DNA of 64,000 nucleotides from Verrucomicrobiia bacterium (GCA_035541135.1 DATKNW010000041.1:30565-94564); one strand, 5' to 3'. Counted from the stretch's first letter, positions 30,789-53,947 are shown. Made by a program: numbers and translations. The notes: generated from the sequence alone by a model not told the origin.

Positions 30789-30802
30789 TGCATACTGATG
30801 CA
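30789..30802. promoter_or_regulatory. palindromic motif ATGCATACTGATGCAT (16-bp form) in the divergent region between the PEP-CTERM gene and the LacI gene
   Basis: Extended 16-bp form (30788..30803) is two self-palindromic ATGCAT hexamers separated by ACTG. It lies ~140 bp upstream of 27452..30649 and ~25-60 bp upstream of the LacI start. Confidence 0.4.
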
Positions 30803-30825
30803 TTTGGCTTCCATTTCCGCTCCGC

Positions 30826-31905: not shown

Positions 31906-32019
31906 TGCACCGATCGCAGCTTATACGCAACCACTTACACGATATTATGGCGCCATATATACAGGTGACTTCGACAAACTCGTTGGCCACGTCGCATAAC
32001 TTGAGCGCGGCCCTGATGG

Positions 32020-32033
32020 TTATACTGATGCAT
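32020..32033. promoter_or_regulatory. degenerate copy of the palindromic motif (GTTATACTGATGCA) upstream of the heparinase/GH operon
   Basis: Right arm and spacer are conserved and the left arm is degenerate. The site is ~315 bp upstream of ATG 32349. The downstream region is locally AT-richer (tattatgcgtactccatcatgaatcc). Confidence 0.25.
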
Positions 32034-32348
32034 ACACATCACAAGAGTATTATGCGTACTCCATCATGAATCCTCATAACGCGCCAATATACGAGATACG
32101 TGCTCGCAGCCTTGTCACAGCGTTCACGCCCCTTCCAATAAGGATTGGAGAGGAGAACTCGCTACTGGTTGATGGCGCAATTAGAAGAAGGACTGATCGC
32201 CCGTGATCTCGTTACACCAACGACTAACAACCGCCGCGCAACCAGACCGGGAACGTTCTGAGTCGAAAAGAATTGACGTTACTGCGAACATCCTGTTTTC
32301 TACGAGCAGTTGTTTGACGGTGCGAGCGCATTTCTACGTCACATAACC

Positions 32349-34547: not shown

Positions 34548-34640
34548 CGACGGTGAGTTTTTCGCAGCTTGAGGACCTCAGCCCACTTTCCAACATTTCA
34601 CCACTCATTACAACGAAACGGTTCAGGGGAACACCAGCGT

Positions 34641-36488: not shown

Positions 36489-36545
36489 TGGGAAACACGG
36501 AGATTGTGGCGGCGTGTCGCGATTACCAGTGGTGTGAGCTCGGCC

Positions 36546-38453: not shown

Positions 38454-39374
38454 ATGGGGAATCCTCTCACCGCAGCCATGACAATCCCAAGACATGATAG
38501 TTCTCTCGATTTCAAGCCCAAGCACAAATGGTTTCTCGGGTTCGACTCTGACGGGACGGTATTCAACTCGATGGAAATCAAACAGAAGCGCATTTTTCTG
38601 CCCCTCGCGGTAGAGCTGTTTGGTCTCCAAGCGGTTGCGAAGGAGTTTCACGAGATCGGGGAATCCATCAACCTGTACTCGGAAACCCGCGGGATTAATC
38701 GCTTCCAAGCGATGGCAAGGGCGCTTAATTCTCTGCAACGGCACCCGCAGGTGCGCGCCAAAGGAATCCGACTTCCCGATTTCTCAGCGCTGCAGGATTT
38801 CGTGCGTTCCGGTCGCGCGCTTACGACCGCTTCGCTGGCAGATTACAATCGCGAGAAATCAGATCCCTTCCTCGCAAAGGTAATCGCCTGGAGCACGCGC
38901 AGTGATGATCAGTACGCGCAAATTACAAAAGAGGAAGGCAACCCTCCTTATCCGCAGATTCGACCGGTGTTGGAGCGCGCGGCCGGTAATGCCGACCTCA
39001 TGATTGTTTCCGGCACGCCGCGTCGGGCGTTGCTACAGGATTGGGGGGACACAAATCTGTTGCCCTTCATCAACTTCATCGGATGCCAGGAGATGGGAAG
39101 CAAAACGGATCAATTGCGATTCGCGGTGAATGGCAACTACGAACCGCACCGGACGTTGATGATCGGCGATGCTCCCGGTGATCTCAAGGCGGCACAAGCG
39201 AACCACGTGATGTTTTACCCAATCATGCCCGGCCAGGAAGCGCAGTCTTGGGCTCGTTTTCTGGATGAAGGGTTCGACAGGTTTCTCAGCGAGCGGTACG
39301 CTGGCGATTACGAGCGACAACTGGTCGACGAGTTTGTCAGCCGGTTACGAATGGGCCACCCGAAGGAAGCCTAG
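38454..39374 (+). CDS. HAD-superfamily hydrolase (putative sugar phosphatase)
   Basis: ATG immediately follows the GH97 stop (taaATG). HAD motif I in FLGFDSDGTVF and motif IV in LMIGDAPGDLKAA. Confidence 0.65.
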   Translation: MGNPLTAAMTIPRHDSSLDFKPKHKWFLGFDSDGTVFNSMEIKQKRIFLPLAVELFGLQAVAKEFHEIGESINLYSETRGINRFQAMARALNSLQRHPQVRAKGIRLPDFSALQDFVRSGRALTTASLADYNREKSDPFLAKVIAWSTRSDDQYAQITKEEGNPPYPQIRPVLERAAGNADLMIVSGTPRRALLQDWGDTNLLPFINFIGCQEMGSKTDQLRFAVNGNYEPHRTLMIGDAPGDLKAAQANHVMFYPIMPGQEAQSWARFLDEGFDRFLSERYAGDYERQLVDEFVSRLRMGHPKEA

Positions 39375-39436
39375 GAGACCCTCGGCGTGAAAGCCGGGAA
39401 GGAGCACTACGCACGTTGCATCAGTGGTGTGGTACA

Positions 39437-41794
39437 ATGGCTCTCTCAATCGTCATATGCCGGCATCTTGAATCCGAAGCGCAAGTGAAACCCGACACGA
39501 ATACGCGCCTGACAGCAACTCCGTTTGCACTTTCTCAGGTTTGTCTGCAGGACGGGCCTTTCAAGGAACGCGAAGATGTCAATGCACGGTTTCTTCTGAC
39601 GGTCGACACAGACCGTTTGCTGGCCCGGTTCCGCCAGGAGGCCGGGCTTGCTCCCAAGGCGGAGCCGTACAGAGGATGGGAATCCAAGGAGCTCGGAGGC
39701 CATAGCCTTGGGCATTACCTCTCAGCTCTGTCTCTGCTTTACGCGTCGACGGGCAGTTCGCACGCGCTGGAACGCATTCGGTATATCATCGATGAACTCG
39801 ATGCCTGCCAGACCGCAAACGGTGGCGGCTACGTATTGTCCGTTCCTAGAAGGGTTTTTGAAGATCTTCGGCAGGGCAAAATCAAGGCCTCTGGGGCAAA
39901 CCTGAATGACTGCTGGGCACCGAACTATACACTCCACAAAATGTTGGCCGGCCTTCGCGACGCTTATCGTCTCGCAGGCAACAACAAGGCGCTCGAAGTG
40001 GAACGGAAGTTCGTGGACTGGCTGGCGGACGTCTTGTCCGGGCTCACGGAGGCCCAAATCCAGGAGATGCTCAAGGCGGAACACGGTGGGATGAACGAAG
40101 TGTTGGCCGATCTCGCGGCGGACGCCGGCGACGCGCGTTATCTGCGCATAGCGGAGAGAGAGTTCCATCACAAGGCCGTTCTCGACCCGCTCGCCAACGG
40201 CGAAGACAACCTGAACGGTCTTCACGGCAACACGCAGATTCCAAAAGTCATTGGCCTCGCCCGCGAGTACGAGATGACATCCAACCCGAAATGCCGCGTT
40301 GCAGTGGAGACATTCTGGGACAGCGTGGTGAACCGGCGCTCATTCGCCATGGGCGGGCACGGCGAAAGCGAATACTTTTTCCCACCGGAGCAATTTCCCG
40401 AGAAGCTGACGCCGTACACGGCCGAGACTTGCAACACCTACAACATGATCAAGCTCACGGGGCATTTGTTTTCGTGGGAACCGAAGGCGGCCCACATGGA
40501 TTTTGTGGAGCGCGCGTTGATCAACCACGTGCTCGCCAACATCGGACACCGGCCCGGCGAGTTTGGCTACTTCCTCAGCCTGGCCTCCGTCGGAGTCAAA
40601 GCGTTTTCGCCGCCGTTCGACGCGTGGTGGTGCTGCGTAGGGACGGGCATGGAAAACCCGGCCCGATATGGGGAGATGGTGTATTTCCACGGGCCGGACA
40701 CGCTGTGGGTGAACCTCTTTATGGGCAGCACGCTCGCGTGGGCGGAAAAAGGCGTGAGTTTCAGGCAGGAGACGCGTTTTCCTGAAGAGGATTCGGTGCG
40801 TCTCGTATTCACGTGCAAAAGGCCGGTGCCGTTCGCGCTGAAAATCCGTCACCCCTATTGGTGCGAACACCCGAAGGTGAAAATCAATGGCAAAGCGATG
40901 ACCGTGAAGTCTACGCCGTCTTCATACATGACATTCGAGCGCACTTGGAAGAGCGGCGACACAATACAATTGCGCCTGCCCATGGCGTTGCGTTTGGAGT
41001 TTTTGCCACATTCTGATGACAGGATTGTTGCCGTGATGTATGGACCGATCGTGCTGGCGGGCATCGTTCCCGTCGAACCGGGCGTTTCCAATCCGGCAAC
41101 GCAACGTTTTGCGGATCACCTCGCCGCGAAGAGAAAGTTCGACGCGTTTGCTCCTGTTTTCGTCGGCGCCAGCGCTGCCGACGTGGTGGCGCATCTGCGG
41201 CCGACGGGCGGAACGTTTGCCGAGTTCCGCAGCGAAGGAGTCGTCAAGCTCGCGGACCTCACGTTCGAGCCTCTCTATCGGGTCTACGAGGAACCTTATG
41301 CCGTCCAGTTTCCGTTGATGACGGCAGCGGAATGGGACCGTCGGGAAGTCGAGCTTCGCGCGGAGCAGGAGCAGCGGGCCCGATGGGAAGCCAACACGCT
41401 CGACACGGTCACGCCGGGTTTCCAGCAGTCCGAGATCGAGCACGGAATGCAGTCGGAAAACAGCACGACCGGGGATTTTCTTAATCGGAAGTGGCGGGAG
41501 GCGCACAATGGTTGGTTTTCCTATGAGATGGCCGTCGATCCCGCCGCGCCCAACGTCCTCGTTGCCACGTATTGGGGCGGCGAATGGCAATCCCACAACT
41601 TTGACATTCTGATCGATGGGCAGAAGATCGGCGCCCAGAAATTGCGCGCAAACAGCCCCGGAGATTTCTTCGAGGAGACTTATCCCATCCCGCTCGTCCT
41701 AACGAAGGGCAAATCGAACGTCACCATCCGGTTTCAAGCGCATGCGAACGACACGGCGGGCAGCGTTTACGGATTGCGCACGAGGCGGGACTAA
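39437..41794 (+). CDS. GH127 / DUF1680 family protein (beta-L-arabinofuranosidase-like)
   Basis: First ATG at 39437 (ORF 39416 begins with TTG). DUF1680/GH127 blocks: RFLLTVDTDRLLARFRQEAGL, YRGWESKELGGHSLGHYLSA, ETCNTYNMIKL, WWCCVGTGMEN. No obvious signal peptide. Confidence 0.75.
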   Translation: MALSIVICRHLESEAQVKPDTNTRLTATPFALSQVCLQDGPFKEREDVNARFLLTVDTDRLLARFRQEAGLAPKAEPYRGWESKELGGHSLGHYLSALSLLYASTGSSHALERIRYIIDELDACQTANGGGYVLSVPRRVFEDLRQGKIKASGANLNDCWAPNYTLHKMLAGLRDAYRLAGNNKALEVERKFVDWLADVLSGLTEAQIQEMLKAEHGGMNEVLADLAADAGDARYLRIAEREFHHKAVLDPLANGEDNLNGLHGNTQIPKVIGLAREYEMTSNPKCRVAVETFWDSVVNRRSFAMGGHGESEYFFPPEQFPEKLTPYTAETCNTYNMIKLTGHLFSWEPKAAHMDFVERALINHVLANIGHRPGEFGYFLSLASVGVKAFSPPFDAWWCCVGTGMENPARYGEMVYFHGPDTLWVNLFMGSTLAWAEKGVSFRQETRFPEEDSVRLVFTCKRPVPFALKIRHPYWCEHPKVKINGKAMTVKSTPSSYMTFERTWKSGDTIQLRLPMALRLEFLPHSDDRIVAVMYGPIVLAGIVPVEPGVSNPATQRFADHLAAKRKFDAFAPVFVGASAADVVAHLRPTGGTFAEFRSEGVVKLADLTFEPLYRVYEEPYAVQFPLMTAAEWDRREVELRAEQEQRARWEANTLDTVTPGFQQSEIEHGMQSENSTTGDFLNRKWREAHNGWFSYEMAVDPAAPNVLVATYWGGEWQSHNFDILIDGQKIGAQKLRANSPGDFFEETYPIPLVLTKGKSNVTIRFQAHANDTAGSVYGLRTRRD

Positions 41795-41844
41795 TAGGCG
41801 CTGCTGTCCGACCGCTGCAACGAATTGACACTGCCGGACGGGTC

Positions 41845-42702
41845 TCACTGTTTCGTGTCTGCTTTCTGCGATTCCTTGTCCAGCCGAATAACAGGAAACC
41901 CATCTCGGCCCAGTTCTTCACCGTATACTCCAGTGCGACGCATCGGTGTGAAACAGTTTTCCTTTTCCTTCTTGAGCAACAACAGATAAAGATCTTCAGG
42001 CTTGGGCTGAAAATCGAGACTGAACGAGCATGGCCGGCTGGTGTCCCAATTGTCTGGCGGCGGCCGTTCGTAATAGCGGAACACAAACCTCTTTGTCCCG
42101 TTCTCTCCTTTCAGCACGCTCTTGACGACGAACTCCGTTTCATACCCGGCAAGATATTGGGGTGGTGAACAATCCGCCTTGCCGTGGTAGAGCTCGGACC
42201 ACGTTTTCGTGTCCACGTACCTCCTCTCTGAAAGGGGCCTGGCGATTGCAGCCAAGTCGATTTGATCGGCGGGCAAAACGCCGCAATAGCCAGGATCGGC
42301 CTGGCCGTTAATCGGGGCGAAGCGACCGTCAGGCTCTTTCGTCAAGAACAGCAAATAAGCCTCCTTTTTGGCTGGATCAAACGAAACAAGCCATGGACCA
42401 CTTCGATAAAGTAGTGAGGGATCGCGTTGCCGGTAGTGGTGGAGCACAAAATTCGTAATCGACTGGCTGCCTTTCAACAGTGTCTGGACACGAAATTCCG
42501 TTTCCAACCCCACGACGTCGACTGCAGGGGCAATGTTCGCAAGCACTGTGCATTCCGAGGTGTCTTTGGTCGAAAGGGGTTGAGCAATGACGACAAGGTC
42601 TGCCTGATCGAACCTCTTTTGGTAGCTCATGGTTTGCACGAACCGTGCGTGAGCCACAAGGGCAAAACTATGGATCAGTAGCACTACAGGAATTGTCTTC
42701 AT
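41845..42702 (-). CDS. secreted hypothetical protein made of two tandem ~130-aa homologous halves
   Basis: Signal peptide MKTIPVVLLIHSFALVAHA. The halves align on (E/D)LVVIAQPLS...TEF(R/V)V(Q/K)(T/S)(L/V)LKG...F(V/V)..YY(R/E)..P... and on ...EAYLLFL(T/K)KE.... No family recognised. Confidence 0.6.
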   Translation of the reverse strand: MKTIPVVLLIHSFALVAHARFVQTMSYQKRFDQADLVVIAQPLSTKDTSECTVLANIAPAVDVVGLETEFRVQTLLKGSQSITNFVLHHYRQRDPSLLYRSGPWLVSFDPAKKEAYLLFLTKEPDGRFAPINGQADPGYCGVLPADQIDLAAIARPLSERRYVDTKTWSELYHGKADCSPPQYLAGYETEFVVKSVLKGENGTKRFVFRYYERPPPDNWDTSRPCSFSLDFQPKPEDLYLLLLKKEKENCFTPMRRTGVYGEELGRDGFPVIRLDKESQKADTKQ

Positions 42703-42902
42703 AGGTACATTTGCTCATGCCCCTTTACCGCGTTCCGAAGCGTACGGCCAATCCAAAAGCTCTCGTCTAAACCAGTGCTCCCATATCCACCAGTGTCAAT
42801 ACGGGTCGTGATTTTCCGGGTTAAACTGATAACCAAGCCGAAACTCGATGGTTCCCGCCAATCGTCTCACGACTAGCATTGCCGCACAAGCGGCTTGCTT
42901 GA

Positions 42903-44573
42903 TTACTGCTTAATGATGAATTGCCGCACCACCGGGGTGGCGGATTGCAGCTTTGGCTCGACGGTGCGGCCCCATTGCCACGCCACAATCGTAATCGTCA
43001 ACGGGAATTTTGCACGGGGGGGAATCTTGGTAAGCGTGAGCGTATCACCATCCACTTCCGCAGGGCCTTCGCGAACGTAGAAGTACACCGGCACGTTCGC
43101 ATCGGATGTGGCATTCAACTTCAGTGTCTTTAGGCCGAGTTTCTGATCGGGGATTGGCGGAAAAGTGATCTGTTGCGCGGCGCCCTCCAGATTGCGCGGC
43201 GGCAGGCGCAACACAGCTTGTTGGACTGCGCTCTTGTATTTCGCATCACCGGGATGACTTGCCAGCAACCAGATGTCGCCCATGCGCCGGTCCGCCGGAA
43301 TACTCGCGCGGTTGAAGCGGACCGCAAATTTGTCCGCGGCCAACTGAACCACGGGACCGCTGATTCGCGAAAGCACGACCGGGCCACCACCGGAGGCGTG
43401 GCCGATTGCCACGCCGTTCGTCAACCCGGTCCACTTCGCCGGATTGGTGCCGGCAGGTACTGTGTCGAGGAACGCGCCCGTCAACGTGAACGTGAGGCTG
43501 TCGTCGAGCCGCGGCAATTTCAGACGGATTTGTTCGTGTGTGTTAGGTGTTTGATCTACGATCTTCCCGTCCTGAACGAAGCCGACGAGTTGCGGCGCTT
43601 TGCCACGCTGAGGATTAAACTTCTCCGTGGCGCGCGCCATCTCACCGTCGAAACACCAAAACGCTTCCCTGACATCGCCCGTGTAGGAGCCAAACGGCGC
43701 GGCGACCGCGCGCGGCCCTTCCTCTTTGCGCCAGCGATCCACCAGCCAACCTTTCCGTGGATCCACGGGGACCAACGCTGGCGGACGGTCTGAGGGCGCG
43801 TCCGCCGGCAGACGTTGCTCGCAGGCCTTGCGCAGAAACATCGCCAGAAAGCGCACCAGCTCATCGGAGTAGTCAAAATGCCCATGCCCAACGTCGGCCA
43901 GCATTGCCACCGGCGTATCCGGATGCTTGGCACGAAATTCCATCGCGGGCGTGAGGCGATCTTCCCACCATTCGTATTCGCCCATGACCATCAGGCCCGG
44001 CACGCCCTCGATGCCCCGACTTCCCCAGTCCAGATTTGGACGGCCATTGCCGGTGAGACGGGTGAGAGGCGCATCACCGTGCACGGACAGGATCGCGAGC
44101 GTGCGGGCCTGGTTCCAAGCGGCAAAATTCCACGGGTAACTCGCCATGGCTGAGTGTCCCAACGGCGCGACCGGCGCAAACTCAAGTTCGTCATATCCCG
44201 ATTTGCGCGCCAAGGTCTTCAACATATCGTTGAAGCGTTCGGTGGCCACGTCATTGGTGGCGGCGTTTTGGAAGTAGTCCAGCATCGGCGCAATGAAGAT
44301 TTCGGCAACACCGAGTTCCGCAAGAGTCTGTCGGAAATCGGGATGTTCCAGAATCCCCTCTTCGATCATGTTGTTCTGTCCGACGACAACGGCTCGCACC
44401 CGCCGGCAATTCGGCGGAATCCACAGGAAGGCCATGGGATGCTCGGTCGAATTTGGCAACGTGATGGAATCGATCGGAACCGACCACTGCCATTCAGCCG
44501 CACGAGCCCGAGACGCGAATGCACCGAAAACAAATGCGCTGAGCAGAGCTAATGCATATGCGATGCGGTTCAT
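42903..44573 (-). CDS. secreted alpha/beta-hydrolase-fold-like protein; paralog of the truncated gene at 1..1525
   Basis: 556 aa. Signal peptide MNRIAYALALLSAFVFGAFASRARA. Collinear with the 1..1525 product (WIPPNCRRVRAVVVGQNNMIEEG; LEFAPVAPLGHSAMASYPWNFAAWN; VMGEYEWWEDR; DVGHGHFDYSDELVRFLAMFLRKA). Confidence 0.65.
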   Translation of the reverse strand: MNRIAYALALLSAFVFGAFASRARAAEWQWSVPIDSITLPNSTEHPMAFLWIPPNCRRVRAVVVGQNNMIEEGILEHPDFRQTLAELGVAEIFIAPMLDYFQNAATNDVATERFNDMLKTLARKSGYDELEFAPVAPLGHSAMASYPWNFAAWNQARTLAILSVHGDAPLTRLTGNGRPNLDWGSRGIEGVPGLMVMGEYEWWEDRLTPAMEFRAKHPDTPVAMLADVGHGHFDYSDELVRFLAMFLRKACEQRLPADAPSDRPPALVPVDPRKGWLVDRWRKEEGPRAVAAPFGSYTGDVREAFWCFDGEMARATEKFNPQRGKAPQLVGFVQDGKIVDQTPNTHEQIRLKLPRLDDSLTFTLTGAFLDTVPAGTNPAKWTGLTNGVAIGHASGGGPVVLSRISGPVVQLAADKFAVRFNRASIPADRRMGDIWLLASHPGDAKYKSAVQQAVLRLPPRNLEGAAQQITFPPIPDQKLGLKTLKLNATSDANVPVYFYVREGPAEVDGDTLTLTKIPPRAKFPLTITIVAWQWGRTVEPKLQSATPVVRQFIIKQ

Positions 44574-44582
44574 CTGTGGCGT

Positions 44583-45692
44583 TCACGTAAGTCTGGCCGC
44601 AGCCTCCGCGGTGATCTGCCATTTCAACGGTTTACCGGCCACGAAGCGGCGCAGTTCCTCGACCATGCAGCGACCCATTCGGCCGCATTCGGCTCCCAGG
44701 GAGCCGGCGATGTGGGGAGTCAGCACAACGTTGGGCAGCGTGAGCAGCGGCGAATCAAGCGCCGGCGGCTCGGGATCCGTCACGTCCAAGACCGCCGTCA
44801 GATCGCGCCGTTGACGGAGTACGTCGATCATCTCCTGTTCTCGTATGATCGCTCCTCGAGCCGTGTTAATCAGGGTCCCGCCGCGTTTCATTGAGGCAAT
44901 ATGTCGCCCAGTGACAAGGCCCCGCGTTCCCGTCAGCTTCGGGGTATGAATCGAGACGACGTCCGCGAGCTTGAAAACATCGGGCAGCGAGCACCGTTCG
45001 ACGCGGAGTTGTCTGGCCTCGTCCGCCGTCAGAAATGGACAGTAGACGATTCGACGGATGTCAAATGGGGCAAGGAGTTCCAGGACCTTTCGAGCGACCA
45101 CGCCGACGGAAACCAAACCCACCGTGCTCCGGTATCCGCCGGGCACGGAGCGCGTGTGGTCTGCCCACCCCTCCCCTTTACGGGTGGCGACGGCATAGCT
45201 CCAGAAACGTTTGAGACTGAGAAGGATGACTCCCAGTGTGTATTCGGCAACCGGGACCGCGTTGGCCGCCGACGCGCTGGTGATAATGATGTTACGCTCC
45301 CAAAACGCAGCGCTGGTAATGGGGCGAATTGAGCCGGCCCCGTAAAACACAGCCTGTAGTCTTGGAGACGCCTGCAAAAACGCCTTGTCCATTACCGGCG
45401 CCCCCCAACCAGAAAAGATGACGTCGGCGGGGGCCAGGAGCCAGGGTTTGCGGGCGATGGATTCCCGTGTCTGGAGTGGGGCAACGATATCGACCAACTC
45501 GGCGATCTCGCGTTGTTCTTCCGCACCATAAACCAACTCGAACGCGCCTTTGTCCAGGATGTACAACCCCTTCAGCCGCTTCCCGTCACGCCCGGCCCCG
45601 CGGAAAAACTTCGGGCCTTTGCCACCGAGTGGACGCACCGCCACGCCGCGCACTGTGTGATGTAATTGATTCGCCCGAGCCGCCTTCATCAT
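44583..45692 (-). CDS. D-isomer-specific 2-hydroxyacid dehydrogenase family protein (NAD-binding)
   Basis: Blocks GLVSVGVVARKV (GxGxxG-like), VVSIHTPKLTGTRGLV, VLTPHIAGS. The start ATGATG overlaps the stop of the upstream gene as ATGATGA. Confidence 0.8.
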   Translation of the reverse strand: MMKAARANQLHHTVRGVAVRPLGGKGPKFFRGAGRDGKRLKGLYILDKGAFELVYGAEEQREIAELVDIVAPLQTRESIARKPWLLAPADVIFSGWGAPVMDKAFLQASPRLQAVFYGAGSIRPITSAAFWERNIIITSASAANAVPVAEYTLGVILLSLKRFWSYAVATRKGEGWADHTRSVPGGYRSTVGLVSVGVVARKVLELLAPFDIRRIVYCPFLTADEARQLRVERCSLPDVFKLADVVSIHTPKLTGTRGLVTGRHIASMKRGGTLINTARGAIIREQEMIDVLRQRRDLTAVLDVTDPEPPALDSPLLTLPNVVLTPHIAGSLGAECGRMGRCMVEELRRFVAGKPLKWQITAEAAARLT

Positions 45693-46100
45693 GGCACCAG
45701 TCGAATGCGATAGAACCGGGATGGGGCATTGGTGGCCCCACCGGGATCCGTATAGTTCGTGACCGCCCCGCCCGCGATGGGAAGGACTGTCAGGGAGTTG
45801 ACAATGTCGACGAAGTTATTGCTGTATCCACCGCTGGCGTCGCCGCCACTGACCTGCACCATGTTGGTGCGCACGCCAGCCGTCGTCCAAGCAACCACAA
45901 CATCGCTGGTCTCCCGCGCCACGGACAGGATCCGGAACACCGATGCCGGGTTGGTCGGGTCCAACCCTGCCAAAAACTGATTGGTGTTGCTCATGCCCTT
46001 GCCAAGCGGATCCGCATTGGCCGCAGCCTGTGGGCAATTGGTGCAATTGAAGTGTTGCATCTGCCATTGCTGGAAGATCGACAGGACATATGCGCTGGCC
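45689..46100 (-). repeat. conserved 3'-terminal gene segment encoding the shared C-terminal domain (copy 4 of 4, most diverged)
   Basis: Retains the block ctgattggtgttgctcatgcccttgccaagcggatccgcattggccgcagcctgtgggca, near-identical to copies 1 and 2. Elsewhere it is more diverged. Confidence 0.65.
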
Positions 46101-48235
46101 GCGCCGGAATTCGCGCTCTCGCCACCGGCATTGACCGCCGACACCACATAGTAGTATGTCGTGCCATCGACGACGGTGGTATCGGTGTACGCGGTCGCCA
46201 CCACGTTCGATGCGATGGTGGTATAGGGCCCGCCGGCAACGGTCGAACGCTTCGCGTTGTAGCCGGTTGCTCCGGATGAGGCGTTCCATTTCAAGCTCAC
46301 CTGCGAATTGGAGGCAGTTGCTGTAAGACCCGTGGGCGCCGACGGTGGACTGGCCGTCTGACCCCAGAATTCGACATCCGCCACATTGCAATAGCCACTG
46401 GCGGGACCGAGATACCGCACGTAGCGGTAGCTGTTGGTGTTGGTAATCGCCTGCACCGTCAAGCTCCCATCGGTCGGAGTAACGCTGATTGTAAACAGAG
46501 TCACCGGCGTCGTGAAGGTGGCGTTGGTCGCAGCCTGGAAGACTCCCCCCACCATGCGCGACGCGTACGTGCTCCTTGGGCAATACTTGATCTGCGTGAT
46601 GGGGTACGCATTGCTCAAGTCCAGCCCGGCCCAATCCCCGCTGGCATCCGGTCCGTCAAAGAAATTGTTGAGGCTGCCGTCAAACACGTTCGTGATCGTA
46701 TTGCCGCCATTGGCGTACGATCCCGACGTGCCAATGAGGGTGCTGCTCAGTTTCGCGACATTGGTTGCAGTCACGCTGGCTTCGGACGAATTGGTTGTTT
46801 CACCGCTGGATGACAGCGCCGAGACCACGTAGTAGTAGGTGGTGTCATTGATCAATCCGCTGTCCGTATAAATCGTGCTGGTTGTATTCGACACAACGAT
46901 CGAGTATGGCCCGCCACTAACGGTGGCGCGCTTGAGGTTGTAGCCGGTGGCACCGGCCGAACCCCACCATTGCAGGACGACCGATAATCCGTTGTTGACC
47001 ACGTTTGTTGCCGTCAGCCCGCCGGGAGCGACAACTGATGAGAGGGGGTTCAGCGAATGTGTCAACGTGGTATAGCCCAGTTGGTCATACCCGCCGCTGT
47101 TGGGGCCGTAATTGCCGCCGCCACCTTCCGGCCGCACCATGGCCGCGTATTGCGACGTGTACGGCGCGGCGACGCCTTTGAGATTAACCCAGTGGTTGTA
47201 CCACAGGTCCCAGGTCGGACGGATGTCCCCGAGACTGTTCGTGGAAATCACGGTTTGAATCACCGGGTCGCACGTGTCGTAGCAGACATACGGCACCGGG
47301 TTTGTGAGGTTATATTTGGCGAAATACTCGACCAACATCAACGGTTTGTTGTTTTCATACCCAAACAGATCCAGTCCCTGATTCCAGGCAATCTGGCAGA
47401 ACGCGCCGAGCAACGCGACGTCGAGGCCCGAATGCCCCTGATCGCGCCCTTCCTCCTGACCCTGCCCAACATATCCTGGATGGATATAATCAACGGTCCG
47501 ATCAATGTTTCCGTTTCCGATCCCGCTTTCGAAATAGGTGATGGCTTCGTTGAATTTATTGCTGTCATCACACACAATGCCAATCGCCAGCATCGAGGTC
47601 ATGTTGCACAAATCCCAGTTGGCCCAATAATGAGTGGTGCAGGCATTGTTGTGATTGACGAGAAAATTGTGGTTCAGCGGGTAGAACACATTCGTCATCA
47701 TTTTTTGGAACTGGGCAAAGTTCAGCGGTTGCCAGCCGCTGTAGTTGCGCATCAGTTCTCCGGCACAGGCAAATTCATATCCGTAGAGCCCCGAAGCCAG
47801 ATACTCGTTAGAATCACCGGAAACATTTGTCAGGGTGGAGGACCAGGCATTCATGATCTGCACCGACTTGTTGGCATAATTGGTGTCGCCGCTGCCGTAG
47901 TACCGCAACGCGCACTGATAAGCCGCCGCGATATCGTACATCAAGTCCGGATAGTTCCCACCCGTAGACGTGCGGGTAATGATCGCCTGTGGATCCGGCG
48001 TGTAGTTGGTCTGCGCGTGAGAATTCGCAATTAGGATATTCCAACTATCGATCCAGGGATGATTCCCCGCAGCCACATTGGTGGCCATGCGGTTGAGATC
48101 GGCGGCCGTCTCCAAAGCGCCGGGATGCACGAACTGGCCGCGTGCGGGCAGGATCGCCACCGTCAGTAGGAACAGAAACGCTATTGGCAAGATCCCTTGA
48201 ATTCCGTTCTTCAAAGAAGTTGGCTCTCGTTTCAT
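45689..48235 (-). CDS. secreted multidomain protein with alginate-lyase-like toroid N-domain, FN3, F5/8 type C (discoidin/CBM32-like) domain, FN3 and the conserved C-terminal domain
   Basis: ORF 45689..48364. The likely start is ATG at 48235 (MKREPTSLKNGIQGILPIAFLFLLTVAILPARG). N-domain QFVHPGALETAADLNRM...NHNNACTTHYWANWD...RDQGHSGLDV is paralogous to the N-domain of 7512..12380. FN3 motif LQWWGSAGATGYNLKR...TYYYVVSAL. Discoidin block NVFDGSLNNFFDG...YRYVRYL...VADVEFWG. C-terminus SIFQQWQMQHFNCTNCPQAAANADPLGKGMSNTNQFLAGLDPTN...SRFYRIRLVP. Confidence 0.8.
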   Translation of the reverse strand: MKREPTSLKNGIQGILPIAFLFLLTVAILPARGQFVHPGALETAADLNRMATNVAAGNHPWIDSWNILIANSHAQTNYTPDPQAIITRTSTGGNYPDLMYDIAAAYQCALRYYGSGDTNYANKSVQIMNAWSSTLTNVSGDSNEYLASGLYGYEFACAGELMRNYSGWQPLNFAQFQKMMTNVFYPLNHNFLVNHNNACTTHYWANWDLCNMTSMLAIGIVCDDSNKFNEAITYFESGIGNGNIDRTVDYIHPGYVGQGQEEGRDQGHSGLDVALLGAFCQIAWNQGLDLFGYENNKPLMLVEYFAKYNLTNPVPYVCYDTCDPVIQTVISTNSLGDIRPTWDLWYNHWVNLKGVAAPYTSQYAAMVRPEGGGGNYGPNSGGYDQLGYTTLTHSLNPLSSVVAPGGLTATNVVNNGLSVVLQWWGSAGATGYNLKRATVSGGPYSIVVSNTTSTIYTDSGLINDTTYYYVVSALSSSGETTNSSEASVTATNVAKLSSTLIGTSGSYANGGNTITNVFDGSLNNFFDGPDASGDWAGLDLSNAYPITQIKYCPRSTYASRMVGGVFQAATNATFTTPVTLFTISVTPTDGSLTVQAITNTNSYRYVRYLGPASGYCNVADVEFWGQTASPPSAPTGLTATASNSQVSLKWNASSGATGYNAKRSTVAGGPYTTIASNVVATAYTDTTVVDGTTYYYVVSAVNAGGESANSGAASAYVLSIFQQWQMQHFNCTNCPQAAANADPLGKGMSNTNQFLAGLDPTNPASVFRILSVARETSDVVVAWTTAGVRTNMVQVSGGDASGGYSNNFVDIVNSLTVLPIAGGAVTNYTDPGGATNAPSRFYRIRLVP

Positions 48236-48607
48236 GGCAGCACTCGGGTGGGATGGGATTTGGACGGACTGTCCGTGCCGCCGCCGGAATCCGTGTAGCA
48301 TGTGACCGCGCCGCCCGCGCCTTGGTCGAACCAACAACTCTCGTCGAGCGCAGGGCTCACCCACCCTTTGGCCATGCCAAGACCCGCGCGCACACGGCGC
48401 CCCGCATGGTTATGAATGAAGGCTCGCACGGTAATCATCGAGGCGAGTGCAACTTGCGACAACATATTGGCAGCCCAAAACCTTCCTCGAACGCTTCGCA
48501 CAGGCCGCCGTGGCCCTATCGAAAGCCCGAGAGCCAGCCAGCGTTGCATCCTTGATTGTACGAGACACATTGTAGATTCCACCGGAAAGAGAAACAAGGC
48601 GAAGCCA

Positions 48608-48623
48608 ATGCATACAGGTGCAT
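48608..48623. promoter_or_regulatory. variant of the palindromic motif (ATGCATACAGGTGCAT) in the divergent region between 45689..48235 and 48965..49840
   Basis: Two mismatches to ATGCATACTGATGCAT. Lies in a 729-bp intergenic region. Confidence 0.25.
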
Positions 48624-48964
48624 TATGGCATTTTTCACAATGACGACTGCGCGGATTCTGTCCCATCGGGCCTTGCCAGCAGGCCGCTTTCCCCGGCCTG
48701 TTTGCAAGCGATTCATTTCACAGTGATCCACCGAACGCCCATTTACTCGCCTCGCAACGCAAGAGGAGAACGCGCACCAGTATACATGCCGCTCTTGTTG
48801 CGCTTGAAACACGCGCCGAATAATTTCCGCCGTTAGCGCGACGACAATTCATCGTATCGGCGCCATAAAGAGGGAGGGCCTGTATGACTTGAACTTATCC
48901 GTTGCATAAGGTGACAGATGGAAACAGGAAACCAACAGGATAGTAACCATACCGGAACTGGAAT

Positions 48965-49840
48965 ATGAATTCTCACACTCTAAAGTATATCGTGGTGTTT
49001 GGACTTAGTGTACTCGTTGGCACCGCGGCCCGTGCCCTGACGGTGAATGTCGCTGTCAACGGCGATATTCAAGGCGCGATCAACGAGGTTGCGGCGGCGG
49101 GCGGGGGGACGGTAAACGTCGGGAGCGGCACCGCAACGCTGCAAACGGAACTCGTGATGGCAAACAGTGTGACGCTCAACGGCGCTGGAAATCCCGCGAC
49201 GACGTGGGATCTGGCCAGCGGCGCCGCTGGTGGCGTGAAATCTCCGAGTAGCGCGTGGAGCAACATCGCACTGACAAACTTCAAAATCTATGGCGCCGGG
49301 ACATCAGTCGCCCAGGAAGGATGCAACATCGGAGGAGTCGGGAGCAGTAACAATGGCGGGAAGATGAGCAACATCCAAGTGCTCAACACGGGCTACGGCG
49401 CCGGGCTTATGGCCTGCAATAATGGCAGCGTGAGCTCCTGCAACTTCCACAACAGCGGCATGAGCAACCTCTACCACGGTTTCTATTTCGGTGGCGGATC
49501 GGCGACCGTGATCTCCGGCAACCAAATGAACAATTCGCCGATGGGATCGGGATTGCACGTGAACAACTGGGCGACGATCAACAGCGGTTCGGACAACAAC
49601 AATACGACCAGCAATAACGGGCAGAACGGCCACAGTTTTACGGCATCGACGAGTGATCCGTTCACCAATTGGACAATCAACAGTTGCACAGCCAATAGTA
49701 ATGGCTATGCCTACACCACCGGAAGCGAGTACGGTTTCTACCTCGGAGCCGGTTCCGGCACGATTGAGAATTGCACGGCCAGTGGGAATCGCACAGCCAA
49801 CTACTACACGGGTGCCTTCAAGCAAATCAACAACCATTAA
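48965..49840 (+). CDS. secreted right-handed parallel beta-helix repeat protein, Asn/Gly/Ser-rich
   Basis: Signal peptide MNSHTLKYIVVFGLSVLVGTAARA. Block NVAVNGDIQGAINEVAAAGGGTVNVGSGTA is typical of pectin-lyase-fold proteins. Repeated ..N.G.. turns run through the rest of the protein. Confidence 0.7.
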   Translation: MNSHTLKYIVVFGLSVLVGTAARALTVNVAVNGDIQGAINEVAAAGGGTVNVGSGTATLQTELVMANSVTLNGAGNPATTWDLASGAAGGVKSPSSAWSNIALTNFKIYGAGTSVAQEGCNIGGVGSSNNGGKMSNIQVLNTGYGAGLMACNNGSVSSCNFHNSGMSNLYHGFYFGGGSATVISGNQMNNSPMGSGLHVNNWATINSGSDNNNTTSNNGQNGHSFTASTSDPFTNWTINSCTANSNGYAYTTGSEYGFYLGAGSGTIENCTASGNRTANYYTGAFKQINNH

Positions 49841-49861
49841 GCAGGGTCTCGCGTAACCCCG

Positions 49862-51121
49862 GTGGAACCCGGGGCAGCATCGCCCGGGTTCCACTCTCGT
49901 TTGCAGCAAAGTCTCCACGGCGATCACGTGACGCAGAAGCGTTCCTCGATCTGGCGGTATTCCATCAGTCTGGTTTTGATGTCCACCGCATTTGTTGCGG
50001 GACGTTTCACAGCGCGGGGGCGGCCTGACCAAATCCGGGAGACGGCCACTCCTGCGGAATTCACAAGGTCAGCGGCGGACGAATTGGATGCCAACAGGGC
50101 GGCATTAGTGGGGATCGGCTCGGATGGAGATTATCTGGAGGGATTGAAAGCAATCGGCGAGCGGCCGGAGAGTGAGGCCAGTTACGATGACGCGTTGAAA
50201 TTCCTCCTGAAATGGGTGGGCGTCGATCCTCTGTCCGCGTTGGAGTACGTCCGTGCTCACTACGATCCGAGACATCGGAACGCGTTTCTTTCCAGCTTGC
50301 TGGCGGCGTGGGCCGGCAAAGATGCGGCAGCGGCTTGGGCCTGGACGACACAGAATCTGCCTGGCGATCATACCCAGTACGATGCGGTGCTTTCGACCAT
50401 CGGCAGGAGCGATCCCGAAACCGCCTGGCGGTACGCCACCGAAGCCGCCGATAAAGAAGGGCGGCCCCATGACCAGTCCGTTTATGTCAGCGCGCTCCGG
50501 GGAATTATCTACGCCGGCCAGTACGAGCAGGCCGCTGGTTTGATTGCGAATCTGTCGCTGGGGCCGGGCGAAGAAACGTACGACATGACCGGCTTCTTGG
50601 CGGGCGAATGGGCCCGTTACGATCCGGCAAAAGCGCTCGCATGGGCGACACAGCTTCCGGGCGATGGCAGCCTGTCCCGTCAACAGGCGTTGGTCAACCT
50701 GGGAATATCCTGGGCGCGGAGCGACCCGCAAGCGGTGGCTGACTTTGCGCTGCAACTGCCGCCGGGTGTTACCAGACTGAACCTGCTATCAACGGCGCTT
50801 GATTCATGGATCACCGATCATCCAGATCAAGTCGCCACCTGGCTCAACCAGAATCAGCCCAACGGGTTCGATCCTGATTTCAACCTGGTGTTGATGTCAC
50901 TTGCCTCATCGTCCAAGATCGTTGACGCCAATCATAACTTGGCGATTTGCTGGGCCAACGCCATCGATGACGATGTTGCCCGGATTCAGGCACTGAATCG
51001 AATCATGACCCGTTGGATGGCGACAGACGCCATGTCTGCGGAAAGCTACCTTGATACTACCGCGGACTTGTCTCCACAGGACATTGCGCAACTTCGCAGG
51101 AATCTCAACATCAGCCATTAG
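49862..51121 (+). CDS. membrane-anchored alpha-helical repeat protein (hypothetical); paralog of 51166..52383
   Basis: N-terminal TM (IWRYSISLVLMSTAFVAGRF). Repeated ~35-aa helical units with conserved W/A positions (AAAAWAWTTQNLPGD, PETAWRYATEAADK, PAKALAWATQLPGDG, PDQVATWLNQNQPNG). Confidence 0.6.
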   Translation: MEPGAASPGFHSRLQQSLHGDHVTQKRSSIWRYSISLVLMSTAFVAGRFTARGRPDQIRETATPAEFTRSAADELDANRAALVGIGSDGDYLEGLKAIGERPESEASYDDALKFLLKWVGVDPLSALEYVRAHYDPRHRNAFLSSLLAAWAGKDAAAAWAWTTQNLPGDHTQYDAVLSTIGRSDPETAWRYATEAADKEGRPHDQSVYVSALRGIIYAGQYEQAAGLIANLSLGPGEETYDMTGFLAGEWARYDPAKALAWATQLPGDGSLSRQQALVNLGISWARSDPQAVADFALQLPPGVTRLNLLSTALDSWITDHPDQVATWLNQNQPNGFDPDFNLVLMSLASSSKIVDANHNLAICWANAIDDDVARIQALNRIMTRWMATDAMSAESYLDTTADLSPQDIAQLRRNLNISH

Positions 51122-51165
51122 GTGGCACGTTACGCTATTCGAGATAAAACAGGGGTGAACATCAC

Positions 51166-52383
51166 GTGTCCGTAGCAATGAAACATGCGGCGATCAACGC
51201 GCTTTTGGTTGTCCTGTCGTTCGGAGCCGGCCATCTGATGGCTCCGCCAAAAGCTCGAAATGATAGCCACAGCGACGCGCTGTTAACGGCGGGAAGATCC
51301 AGCGATCAAACGGTAATGAACGCGACAATGCGGGCAGCCCCTGGCAGTCCGACAAATTCAAACGCGCCACTACTGTCGAAAAATGACACCTCAAGAACGG
51401 ACGAGATCAAGAGTTTGCTATACGGACTCGGTGACGAACTGGCCAGTGAACAGGCTTATGACAAACTGATGCAGCGGTTACTGGCTCTGGCGGCGGTAGA
51501 TCCGCATGGAGCCGTTGATTATGCGGTGCATCATCTCAAGCCGCCATTTCAAGAGGTGGCGCTGACAAAGGTCCTCGGAGTCTGGGCGGGAAACGATTCG
51601 CAATCAGCATGGGATTGGGTGAAGACCAACAAGGCGGACGACTCGTTGCTTGTCGGCACCGTGCTGAACGAGGTGGGGAAAACGCAACCGGACACCGCCT
51701 GGCGATTTGCCACGGAGCTTGGGAGCACGATGCCCCAAGAGGCCGCGGGCCTGTATGTCAGCGTCATCAACGGAATGTTGTACGCCGGCAGGTACGAAGA
51801 TGCCACGCGGCTGTTGGATAGCGCCGTTCTGCCGAAAAATGTGCGGGAATCAGAATATGGTCTCGCTGGTTTTCTGGCCGGTCAATGGGCCGAGTATCAG
51901 CCTAATCGGGCGGCTGCATGGGTTCTTACGTTGCCGGAAGGCGGCTCGGCGCGCAGACAAGCGCTGGCCGCTCTCGGTCAGTCGTGGGCCGTTGTTGACC
52001 CGGAGGGGGCAGCCAATTTCGCAGCTGAACTTCCGCCGGGCCCCGAACGTGTTTCCATGATGGCATCGGCTGTCGATGCGTGGTTTGCCAAGGATCCCAA
52101 ACAGGTTGATACGTGGATTGCAATGCTGCCTCAAGGAGCCGATTACGACCAGTTCGCAGCAGCCATTGCTGTGGCGCCGCGGATTATTAACAGCGATCCC
52201 GAAGCCTCGGTGCAGTGGGCCATGGCGATTTCCGACGACGAACTGCGAATGCAGAGCCTGAGCAAGGTCTTTGTCCAATGGTTCCAACAAGCTGATGTCG
52301 ATGCCATGGCCTATCTGACACAGATGCCGCCAGCCATTCAAAGCGAACTCCGTAAGCGAGTAGGGATTGTCAACGGGCCGTGA
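51166..52383 (+). CDS. membrane-anchored alpha-helical repeat protein (hypothetical); paralog of 49862..51121
   Basis: N-terminal TM (AAINALLVVLSFGAGHLMA). Collinear with 49862..51121 (DELASEQAYDKLMQRLLALAAVDPHGAVDY...; SQSAWDWVKTN; PDTAWRFATELG; RAAAWVLTLPEGG; PKQVDTWIAMLPQG). Confidence 0.6.
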   Translation: MSVAMKHAAINALLVVLSFGAGHLMAPPKARNDSHSDALLTAGRSSDQTVMNATMRAAPGSPTNSNAPLLSKNDTSRTDEIKSLLYGLGDELASEQAYDKLMQRLLALAAVDPHGAVDYAVHHLKPPFQEVALTKVLGVWAGNDSQSAWDWVKTNKADDSLLVGTVLNEVGKTQPDTAWRFATELGSTMPQEAAGLYVSVINGMLYAGRYEDATRLLDSAVLPKNVRESEYGLAGFLAGQWAEYQPNRAAAWVLTLPEGGSARRQALAALGQSWAVVDPEGAANFAAELPPGPERVSMMASAVDAWFAKDPKQVDTWIAMLPQGADYDQFAAAIAVAPRIINSDPEASVQWAMAISDDELRMQSLSKVFVQWFQQADVDAMAYLTQMPPAIQSELRKRVGIVNGP

Positions 52384-52573
52384 TCCGAATGCGAACATCG
52401 CGCCGTGACAAGGACCGCTCTCGCTAGCAGTCTGTTAGGCTGCGCTGCTCTGTTGAAATCCTCACAAATTGGCTGATGGTTGCTCGGGGTGGGAACCGAT
52501 GAAAGACCAGTCGTTGTTGGGGCTGCGCGATTCTATTCGATCAAGGAAGGCGGTTCGCCAACTGGCGAATCAC

Positions 52574-53797
52574 CTACGTGGCGGCTTGGTGACTACGCAT
52601 CGGCACCACGTTCGCAGCTTGTTTCGGAGAAATGTTCCACCACACCATGGCGTCCTGGGGAGTGACCAACTCTCGGTAGTGTCGAAAGATCATGGCTGGG
52701 GTGTTACCCATTTCTAACGCGACTTTGGCCGCATCCTGACACTGAGCCAACCGGTAGGTCGCGTAGGAATGTCGCAGGCCGTTCTTCGGCCAACGAACGC
52801 CGATTTCTCTTGCCAAAACAGACGCCTTGCGCCCAATGCGAGACCAGAGGCAGACTGGTCCGGTTTGTGCCCGATATGGAGCAAGCCACGCTTCAAGGTT
52901 GGGCTGAATCGGCACGAGACGGCGCTGTGCGGTCTTGGCCTTCTTTGCCTTCACCTCCACGAACCCTTGATCAAATCGAACATCTTCCCACTCCAGCCGA
53001 AGAAGCTCAGCATGCCGCAGGCCTGTGAAGGCCCCGATTGCCAAGAAAGGCACGAGGTTGCCATCCGCTTTGGCGATCAACCTAGCGAGGTCGGCGGGAC
53101 GGAAAATCTCGATCTCGGTGCCGTTGTCCTTTGCCCGCGGTAGCATGTCGGCTTCGGTGGCCCGATCACGCAACAGATAACCACGCTGGCGGGCAAAGCG
53201 CCAGAGTGTTACCACCAAGCCCCGGTAGTTGTTTCGCGAGCGCAAGGAGCCGGGCAGAGACCGCAGCCAATTCTCAAGCTGACCTTGCGTGACCTGTCCC
53301 ATTGGACCCGAGAAGGCAGCAGCGATGTGCGGTAGCCGCGTGTTCAGGTCTTTGAGGTAGGCCGCACTCACTCCGTCCTGTCGCTTCGCTTCCAGCAACT
53401 CATCGGCGACTTGCTTAACCGTCTTGGCAGGCAGCGCCGTGGGATGATGCCGAAGATAGAAATCTACCGCCTCATTCAGGGATGCCTTTTGGAGTTTGGT
53501 TCTGGCCTTCGCATACGCCTCGACAGCGTCATGGAGCGTCACGCCGAAAGGGTTGAGCACTTCGAGAGAGCGCGCATAGGAATCGCGGTCGGCACCGGTA
53601 AGCATGATGCCCAATGCTTTCTGCCCGTGAATCGCAGTCGCGACTTCCTTGGCGCGGTCAGCGGCTTCATCGCGTGTGGACCGTGATTCTCGCCGACGGC
53701 GCCCGTCTTGGTAATAGCTGATGCACCAGCGACCGCTGGAAAGAGCGTAGACAGGGACCTTGACGGAACCAACGCTGACAAGGAAAGAGCGTTTCAT
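52574..53797 (-). CDS. tyrosine-type site-specific recombinase / phage-type integrase
   Basis: ORF 52574..53812. The likely start is ATG at 53797 (MKRSFLV). Catalytic-domain blocks AFTGLRHAELLRLEWEDV, NGLRHSYATYRL, IFRHYRE (R..H..R..Y). Confidence 0.85.
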   Translation of the reverse strand: MKRSFLVSVGSVKVPVYALSSGRWCISYYQDGRRRRESRSTRDEAADRAKEVATAIHGQKALGIMLTGADRDSYARSLEVLNPFGVTLHDAVEAYAKARTKLQKASLNEAVDFYLRHHPTALPAKTVKQVADELLEAKRQDGVSAAYLKDLNTRLPHIAAAFSGPMGQVTQGQLENWLRSLPGSLRSRNNYRGLVVTLWRFARQRGYLLRDRATEADMLPRAKDNGTEIEIFRPADLARLIAKADGNLVPFLAIGAFTGLRHAELLRLEWEDVRFDQGFVEVKAKKAKTAQRRLVPIQPNLEAWLAPYRAQTGPVCLWSRIGRKASVLAREIGVRWPKNGLRHSYATYRLAQCQDAAKVALEMGNTPAMIFRHYRELVTPQDAMVWWNISPKQAANVVPMRSHQAAT

Positions 53798-53873
53798 AAC
53801 GATGCAGAGCATACCAAATTTGTCACGGATTTGTCACGAGAAAACCGAGGAGTACAGACCTACAGCGGAAAAG

Positions 53874-53947
53874 TGGAGCGGGCGATGGGAATCGAACCCA
53901 CCTCACCAGCTTGGAAGGCTGGCGCATTACCACTATGCTACGCCCGC
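53874..53947 (-). tRNA. tRNA-Gly (anticodon UCC), CCA encoded
   Basis: Minus-strand sequence GCGGGCGTAGCATAGTGGTAATGCGCCAGCCTTCCAAGCTGGTGAGGTGGGTTCGATTCCCATCGCCCGCTCCA folds by hand into a cloverleaf. Acceptor stem is 7 bp (GCGGGCG/CGCCCGC). D-stem GCAT/ATGC. Anticodon stem CCAGC/GCTGG with loop CTTCCAA (anticodon TCC). T-arm GTGGG-TTCGATT-CCCAT. Discriminator U, then CCA. Confidence 0.85.

Follow-up and report, generated by a model that had tools for sequence, protein, structure and literature searches.

Tyrosine integrase beside tRNA-Gly(UCC) and a three-gene cassette that probably belongs to a polysaccharide-degradation locus in a Verrucomicrobiia bacterium

Between positions 48,965 and 53,947 of a 64,000-nucleotide stretch of DNA from a Verrucomicrobiia bacterium (GCA_035541135.1 DATKNW010000041.1:30565-94564; the whole stretch is called the window) three genes, g1, g2 and g3, lie next to the gene for a tyrosine integrase, which in turn adjoins a tRNA-Gly(UCC) gene. 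A preliminary description of this region regarded the three genes as the candidate cargo of a tRNA-targeting integrative element. Our verdict is that no island can be delimited here, and that the arrangement is an ordinary integrase flanking a tRNA gene (tDNA) beside a cassette of a glycan locus. We give a probability of about 60% to the reading that the integrase module is the tDNA-proximal end of a genomic island, the distal part of which was lost or rearranged, now abutting a resident cassette. Two unrelated units would thus meet at about 52.4-52.6 kb. The first would be an integration module (52515-53873) plus the tRNA, belonging to a Verrucomicrobial genomic-island family, and the second g1-g2-g3 (48965-52383), a conserved cassette of the adjacent polysaccharide-degradation locus which most likely arrived separately from the integrase. 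An integrase beside a tRNA is insufficient for calling its neighbours cargo, and in this instance comparative context reverses the call.

When 185,579 species genomes were scanned with hyp449, a core gene flanking the tRNA, 35 Verrucomicrobiia loci emerged (loci used in the comparisons carry numbers preceded by L), across which the order proB-proA-(acyl-CoA synthetase)-hyp449-tRNA-Gly is conserved. Eleven loci combine an intact tRNA with sufficient 3' flank, and two of them, L009 and L027, possess an integrase ortholog (86-87% amino acid identity). In blastn comparisons the window is homologous to these two loci over hyp449, the tRNA and the integrase, as far as 52599-52603 at the 3' end of the integrase gene. 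The genes downstream of the integrase differ by sub-lineage (Table 1) and look like flexible chromosomal content. No g1-g3 were found in the loci fetched via the flanking core gene or the integrase.

The ordered g1-g2-g3 cassette was recovered from eight other, independent contexts (Table 1), each of g2 and g3 pairing there with its own ortholog at 44-57% identity (g3 orthologs, 44-54% in L037, L041, L044, L053, L054 and L060). No tRNA or integrase is present in any of the eight. A LacI gene adjoins the cassette in six of them (L037, L041, L044, L053, L060 and L062); one also adjoins g1 in L052, where g1 lies at the contig end, and another is located 4.6 kb upstream of g1 in L059. Counted over the cassette or g1 contexts examined, LacI is nearby in seven of nine, and most have glycoside hydrolases. 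The cassette-adjacent LacI genes are 41-48% identical to that of the window (tblastn). Profile searches with g2/g3 and a search with g1 recovered close orthologs from the Verrucomicrobiota only. A metagenome scan with g3 alone had found nothing, and it was alignment of g1 that later succeeded. With homology ending at the integrase and the cassette recurring free of integrase and tRNA, g1-g3 are most likely not cargo of the integrase. The earlier view that these genes play no part in the glycan locus is an interpretation, and the data speak against it: the cassette accompanies LacI and glycoside hydrolase (GH) genes and g1 has an alginate epimerase/lyase fold.

Table 1. Features of the window, tRNA-splitting sites and gene content of compared loci. 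Coordinates are those of the window unless a locus is named.
Feature	Coordinates	Strand	Basis or content
LacI-family regulator	30826..31905	+	Pfam; best window match to cassette-adjacent LacI genes
Divergent promoter region, alginate-lyase-like gene/g1, about 730 bp	48236..48964	.	
g1, secreted right-handed parallel beta-helix, 291 aa	48965..49840	+	AlphaFold2, Foldseek
g2, transmembrane helix plus alpha-solenoid	49862..51121	+	AlphaFold2, Foldseek
g3, membrane-anchored alpha-solenoid, g2 paralog	51166..52383	+	37% identity to g2
Convergent intergenic spacer, g3 stop to integrase stop	52384..52573	.	blastn end points, tail similarity
Tyrosine integrase, 407 aa, intact	52574..53797	-	Pfam PF00589, PHROG phrog_1
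Leader between tRNA and integrase	53798..53873	-	Layout conserved in window, L009, L027, L045, L046, L050
tRNA-Gly(UCC), CCA encoded	53874..53947	-	ARAGORN; Rfam RF00005, 71.8 bits
tRNA-split positions	L007:11541-11581, L012:11453-, L015:15597-, L017:11426-, L018:11431-, L032:11434-		Homologous to window 53907-53947
Cassette context, L037-40			LacI, cassette, GH3, AraA, aldolase, SSF, aldose epimerase
Cassette context, L041-43			GH43, LacI, cassette, apiosidase
Cassette context, L044, L053, L060			OEP ... Chlam_PMP beta-helix, cassette, LacI
Cassette context, L054			Cassette only (3.4-kb contig)
Cassette context, L061			Cassette, GH88, fn3 giant
Cassette context, L062			LacI, cassette, 821-aa protein, TonB receptor
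Downstream of integrase, L009 and L046			LamG/PKD giants, 2.4 kb common to both
Downstream of integrase, L027			ECF sigma, glycosyltransferases
Downstream of integrase, L045			RCC1/TSP3 protein
Downstream of integrase, L050			YflT, HSP20, BON, PEPCK

The integration module and its relatives

ARAGORN calls tRNA-Gly(tcc) as the sole tRNA of the window and its Rfam score far surpasses the gathering score of 29; the tRNA of the preliminary description is thereby borne out. Most related Verrucomicrobiia metagenome-assembled genomes (MAGs) have the same 74 nt, the intact identical copies including those of L002, L004-L006, L008, L009, L019, L021, L027, L029 and L034. The open reading frame (ORF) of the integrase spans 52574..53812 on the minus strand. 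The upstream in-frame ATG at 53812 is not kept in homologs, all of which begin with the residues MKRSF; these place the start at 53797, close to the 3' end of the tRNA as had been proposed, and leave 76 nt between the CCA end and the ATG on the same strand. The protein is full length when compared to its homologs, of which a protein search found more than 2000. Its match to PF00589 (29.5 bits) is just above the cut-off of 27.1, while that to phrog_1 ("integrase", E 1e-26) extends over residues 25-357, and between them they confirm a tyrosine integrase adjoining tRNA-Gly. The protein also matches XerA, XerC and XerD weakly, and was aligned to XerA from the PDB. When 22 integrase homologs are aligned, R261, K288, R342 and Y374 show no variation, and both catalytic-site histidines are replaced by invariant asparagines (N339, N365) throughout the lineage. 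Judged by the catalytic R-K-H-R-H/W-Y set, the integrase belongs to the tyrosine recombinase superfamily and is predicted to be catalytically intact.

The leader reads CCA|CTTTT, and continues with a short hairpin and two GTGACAA repeats 11 nt apart (53820-53827, 53831-53838) which overlap a promoter-like GTGACA-18-TATGCT (53837..53808; promoter scan). Shared across loci are CCA-(C/T)(T/A)TTT, the hairpin and paired GTGACAA about 20 nt ahead of the ATG, and the layout is the same whether the upstream gene is tRNA-Gly or tmRNA. Five of six loci have no further pair of GTGACAA copies within 40 nt; L050 is the exception, its first leader copy having mutated to GTGACAG. The two repeats may serve the integrase as arm-type or operator sites. 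Equipped with a promoter-like element of its own and with this repeat pair, directly after the tRNA-Gly 3' end, the integrase would, by analogy with tDNA-targeting integrases, recombine the attachment (att) site attP of a circular element with an attB overlapping the 3' end of the tRNA. The earlier reading of this arrangement as the signature of a tRNA-targeting integrase is upheld by its same position in relatives, by the conserved leader, and by the use of the tRNA as a target elsewhere.

The spacer on the other side of the gene offered little. About 60 nt next to the integrase stop are common to the window, L045 and L050. A degenerate tDNA fragment suspected by eye after the stop codon was discarded when gapped local alignment placed it at background level, the fraction of locus-wide background windows scoring at least as high as the post-stop tail against tDNA being 0.2-0.94. 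A second arm-like GTGACAA cluster marking the far end was likewise sought and rejected, none being present. A single exact inverted copy of the leader repeat, CGTGACAA, occurs at 52404-52411 (+) inside this 190-nt spacer; it is not conserved in the other loci and is probably there by chance.

Close homologs of the integrase (81-89% amino acid identity) follow an identical tRNA-Gly in L009, L027, L046, L048 and L049 (87% in the last three) or, in L045 (89%), a tmRNA gene at a distance of 77 nt. The integrases of L050 and L051 (83%) are preceded by only a remnant, ...CACCACCA followed by CTTTT, with CoiA, a gene resembling those of type IV coupling proteins (T4CP) and SMODS upstream, an arrangement like that of a tandem array. 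The ratio of nonsynonymous to synonymous substitution (dN/dS) is 0.03-0.11 among six integrases, at a largely saturated dS and as low as that of hyp449. Purifying selection is thus strong, and the gene is maintained, not decaying. Between L009 and L027 dS is 0.44 for the integrase versus 1.26 for hyp449, and between the window and L027 it is 2.5 versus 0.93, saturation making all these figures rough. Taken at face value this discordance, together with the patchy distribution and the two target genes, indicates horizontal movement of the integrase.

More distant relatives (27-43%) occur in 55 viral contigs of IMG/VR, many of them near the contig end and one adjoining tRNA-Thr; IMG/VR holds no close relatives. 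The nearest named relatives are the integrases of the Akkermansia muciniphila phages Chantilly, Chambord and Moulinsart (GenBank ON453894-6), which have a Verrucomicrobial host and an annotated integrase close to the genome end, but which are only 25-27% identical over 59-84% of the protein, and the window is without phage genes.

One might consider instead that the conserved unit of tDNA end, leader and integrase, some 1.4 kb, is a solitary and long-lived entity. It might be a cargo-less lineage hopping between the tRNA-Gly(UCC) and tmRNA sites of Verrucomicrobiae, or a recombinase which the host keeps to serve the hot spot, acting for instance in trans on integrase-less elements that it would capture or excise. 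Only this unit is common to six contexts, purifying selection on it persists at saturated dS, its phylogeny is discordant and its distribution patchy, and the homolog loci are without an att repeat over 4-11 kb. Yet no flanking repeat bounds the unit, the post-stop tails resemble tDNA at background level and are without a second GTGACAA cluster, L009 and L046 share 2.4 kb of downstream genes, and the lone integrases which island decay commonly leaves behind account for the same data. In either form we hold this explanation to be quite improbable.

The three-gene cassette and the glycan locus

Neither g1, g2 nor g3 has a match in Pfam, NCBIfam or PHROGs. g1 carries a signal peptide, consists to 41% of N, G and S, and is modelled by AlphaFold2 as a right-handed beta-helix with a mean confidence (pLDDT) of 90.8, in agreement with its first description as an Asn/Gly/Ser-rich secreted beta-helix protein. 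Foldseek returned AlgE4 (2pyg), 8ja4 (TMq 0.66), 6kfn, Pel9A (1ru4), RbmB (9ozl), chondroitinase B and tailspikes. With the beta-helix epimerases and lyases among these (the mannuronan epimerase AlgE4, the alginate epimerase/lyase 8ja4 and the alginate lyase 6kfn) g1 shares its fold at a Foldseek probability of 1.0 and, as a secreted protein, it is encoded beside alginate-lyase-like, heparinase II/III and GH genes; it differs from them in being shorter and in a sequence identity of 9-17%. PF13229 is matched by seven of 19 members of the g1 family, though not by g1 itself, and distant relatives match PF13229, NosD and pectate-lyase models. Given its short length, g1 may not be an enzyme at all but a binding protein.

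The AlphaFold2 model of g2 (pLDDT 83.6) comprises an N-terminal transmembrane helix, a disordered linker and an alpha-solenoid of helical hairpins of about 35 residues rich in W..DP..A..W, for which Foldseek found generic PPR/TPR-like solenoids only. This model, and the identity of g2 to g3, fit the earlier view of the pair as paralogous anchored helical-repeat proteins. A word-indexed search had made g2/g3 seem a tiny family of 18 proteins. This was overturned by a full HMMER search, which places them in a repeat superfamily of 24,036 cluster representatives (50% clustering) at E<=1e-3 and 4,129 at E<=1e-30. Many members are multi-repeat proteins of 600-1600 aa, and a Pfam scan of ten of them (from proteins P0158-P0305) gave no significant match; it is only the close cassette orthologs which are few.

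If the models are correct, g1 would be secreted and of the alginate lyase/epimerase fold class, with g2 and g3 as inner-membrane-anchored, outward-facing solenoids. The latter two would most likely form a membrane-tethered scaffold which holds or presents g1 for the processing or sensing of uronate-type glycans. To our knowledge such an alpha-solenoid anchor pair has no counterpart in described systems, and SusC/D-type systems are, as far as we know, lacking in the Verrucomicrobial phylum. A cassette with no Pfam match that keeps company with LacI and glycoside hydrolases may have a lineage-specific part in capturing or sensing polysaccharides.

To the left of g1 lies a polysaccharide-degradation locus encoding an alginate-lyase-domain/fn3 protein, 2-hydroxyacid dehydrogenase (2-Hacid_dh), GH127, a HAD hydrolase, GH97, GH3, heparinase II/III, the LacI regulator, giant alginate-lyase/PKD/DUF1349 proteins, an SSF transporter, and DUF1559/prepilin-like and PEP-CTERM proteins. 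The divergent region ahead of g1 contains a candidate operator, ATGCATACAGGTGCAT, at 48608-48623, with a weaker copy at 48772-48787. It matches ATGCATACTGATGCAT at 30788-30803, 22 nt upstream of LacI; the 16-mer pattern is exact at both places, the palindrome being ATGCATAC-NG-RTGCAT, and recurs with two mismatches at 21149-21164 and 22885-22900. The five best sites of the motif are all intergenic, although intergenic DNA makes up just 7.2% of the window. The sites precede two DUF1559/prepilin-like genes, LacI, and the divergent alginate-lyase-like gene and g1. We propose ATGCATAC-NG-RTGCAT as a candidate operator, one that would mark out a regulon across the glycan locus, and the cassette is probably co-regulated by the LacI repressor of that locus. 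The likeness to LacI-controlled polysaccharide utilization clusters lies in a LacI gene by the cassette, in flanking GH3, GH43, GH88, apiosidase or TonB receptor genes, and in the palindrome common to the g1 and LacI promoter regions. A difference is that in the window LacI is 17 kb from the cassette, and here regulation by LacI is predicted.

The linkage of the cassette to this locus is not confined to the window. Genes of its left flank are shared by L059 and L041 (2-Hacid_dh, 55%; alginate-lyase/DUF1349 giants, about 50%). In L059:10001-20846, from a Chthoniobacteraceae MAG, g1 stands beside 2-Hacid_dh, LacI and GH43, and after g1 a mobile element (ArdC, MazE, a DDE transposase, a T4CP-like gene and Replic_Relax) replaces g2 and g3; on its gene order, the L059 cassette is truncated by this element.

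Search for the other end of an island

The att searches covered 1..53873, the 53.8 kb to the left of the tRNA. No copy of the tRNA 3' end, exact or with up to three mismatches, exists anywhere in the window. The blastn-short search at word size 7, which is the Islander setting (PMC4383910), found direct matches of the tRNA of 11-12 nt at best (E > 0.5, or chance), and the best ungapped 30-mer match, 19/30, equals the shuffle maximum. The failure to see a direct repeat by eye in the preliminary description is therefore confirmed and extended to the entire window, and the attL/attR repeats for which a BLASTN search had been suggested there are represented by chance matches only. That description had also allowed for an ancient domesticated remnant, recognizable from a missing att repeat and from an integrase conserved in all relatives. 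The first of these is what we find; the second is not, the integrase being present in two of 11.

The homolog loci L009, L027, L045, L046 and L050 have no att repeat within 4-11 kb downstream. Pfam scans of every large ORF from 1531 to 53812 gave no excisionase, transposase, phage or conjugation genes, and the ORFs of at least 30 aa in 48200-48970, their translations judged by eye, include no obvious excisionase candidate. A compositional anomaly at 48-54 kb, which the earlier description had thought worth looking for, was rejected, as GC content, GC3 and tetranucleotide distance resemble those of the rest of the locus (tetranucleotide z -0.3 to -0.7). The Logan contig SRR8879131_323111, which matches the window identically, breaks off at 53900 within the tRNA. 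We rejected this end as an att signal, because many members of the community share the identical tRNA, and L006 and L027 also the first flank bases CTTTT, which would explain a break of the k-mer graph at this place.

The Islander definition of a tDNA island requires that a displaced tDNA fragment in the same orientation, 2-200 kb away, mark the other end (PMC4383910). An integrase and an intact tRNA are both found here, the lineage also uses tmRNA, and the tRNA is a hot spot for several elements, all as in such islands. The differences are that the displaced fragment is absent from 1..53873, that there are no phage, conjugation or other accessory mobility genes, and that the end points are unmappable. 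As no distal att, excisionase or mobility gene was found, the module is read as the surviving end of an island, the far boundary of which would have been lost or rearranged, and it is probably not excisable now.

The island of about 5 kb implied by the preliminary description, with integrase and g1-g2-g3 bounded by a short or degraded att near 48.2-48.9 kb, has in its favour the integrase abutting the tRNA 3' end, the three genes directly adjoining it and missing from all loci fetched via the flanking core gene, and the ability of very short att cores to evade detection. Against these stand the want of a repeat even at 19/30 stringency, the other neighbours of homologous integrases and the end of homology at the integrase stop codon, the conservation of the cassette with LacI and GH genes in eight contexts free of integrase and tRNA, the promoter motif which the cassette has in common with the locus LacI, and a composition which is not anomalous. 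We consider such an island highly improbable.

A larger island, exceeding 54 kb, would have the integrase marking attL, the whole polysaccharide-degradation locus as cargo and attR beyond the left end of the window, and could be a genomic island or a degraded integrative and conjugative element (ICE). Carbohydrate-utilization loci travel on ICEs in the Bacteroidota, the left 53.8 kb of the window is beside this tRNA in no relative, and a g1-bearing glycan locus lies next to conjugation-type genes in L059. However, the 53.8 kb contain no conjugation, phage, excisionase or transposase gene in the Pfam scans of large ORFs, their tetranucleotide composition is uniform, ordinary genes such as that for PEPCK lie within a few kb of the integrase in relatives, and the linkage of the cassette to LacI, 2-Hacid_dh and the alginate-lyase giants is ancient (about 50% amino acid identity across families) and integrase-free. 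This larger island is to our minds unlikely.

Several points weigh against our preference for a surviving island end beside a resident cassette. The window reaches just 53.8 kb to the left of the tRNA, and an attR may lie farther out. Purifying selection on the integrase argues against a dead remnant. None of the compared genomes is one of the same species with an empty site, by which the insertion boundary might be placed. The mobile element of L059 lies directly beside g1; it is the sole case among the other cassette loci, and leaves room for cassette loci carried on mobile DNA. The operator motif is specific to the window: the other cassette loci lack it, and their LacI proteins share just 41-48% identity with that of the window. 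Finally, the functions suggested for g1-g3 are deduced from fold and context.

The tRNA-Gly gene as an integration site and its right flank

In Verrucomicrobiia of peat and soil tRNA-Gly(UCC), next to proBA, is a hot spot at which several elements integrate. The 3' flank of the tRNA varies among relatives, which share only the integrase module (L009, L027 and L046) or an ORF6N-ppdK block (L004 and L006). The left flank of the window is absent at this tRNA in every relative compared; nearly all flanks differ, and none of these relatives is the same species.

In at least six related MAGs (L007, L012, L015, L017, L018 and L032) the tRNA breaks off after position 41/42, a point on the 3' side of the anticodon stem (Table 1). 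Conserved sequence lies beyond the cut, followed in L018 by an HTH_17 (Xis-like) gene and a 913-aa TrwC relaxase/helicase; L005 has an ORF of the same length as this relaxase at the equivalent position. The inserts are 90-93% identical between MAGs versus about 79-82% for the core flanks (comparisons involving L007), and the tRNA-splitting elements have therefore been mobile recently. The element is an ICE or integrative and mobilizable element of the rare 5' tDNA fragment type, an anticodon-centred att configuration found in 159 of 3919 Islander islands (PMC4383910). The likeness is to these relaxase elements of related MAGs; such an element is not in the window, and they bear only on the tRNA as a hot spot.

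The contigs of L020, L031 and L036 end within the tRNA, two of the three at about position 41. A third kind of insertion is seen in L003:11431-11480, where unrelated AT-rich DNA interrupts the tRNA earlier, after position 37. In L005:12014-12015 a tRNA fragment (positions 17-41) occurs 490 nt past the intact tRNA behind an "NN" scaffold gap, and this tandem arrangement may be a scaffolding artefact joining occupied and unoccupied variants. L046:1-9924 contains a second tyrosine integrase, 29% identical to that of the window, 5' of an intact tRNA-Gly and preceded by DUF6088, AAA_14, type I restriction-modification and other defence genes and a serine recombinase. This upstream element may be the other (right) junction of the tRNA-splitting element; a comparison of the genes of the two gave no matches.

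To the right of the tRNA are hyp449, acyl-CoA synthetase, proA, proB, an ORF6N anti-repressor-like gene and ppdK. hyp449 (54019-55368, minus strand) specifies a 449-aa protein with no Pfam or NCBIfam match, and is located between proA and tRNA-Gly in Verrucomicrobiia at 55-88% identity. The acyl-CoA synthetase gene (55346-57241, minus strand) separates proA from hyp449 in the window, L002-L005, L012, L018 and L031 and is missing in L006-L009, L011, L017, L027 and others, a presence/absence polymorphism within conserved synteny. The ORF6N/KilAC-type gene (59384-60013, plus strand; Pfam 6.7e-35, PHROG anti-repressor 4e-24) lies between proB and ppdK and is kept at 74-87% in many relatives, a phage-type regulator among housekeeping genes. 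In L004:11424-15000 and L006:11399-16800 the block ORF6N-hyp194-ppdK directly follows the tRNA, whereas in the window (58156-63911) and most relatives it is inverted and on the far side of proB. From this placement it follows that the proB..tRNA segment was inverted, with one breakpoint at the 3' end of the tRNA.

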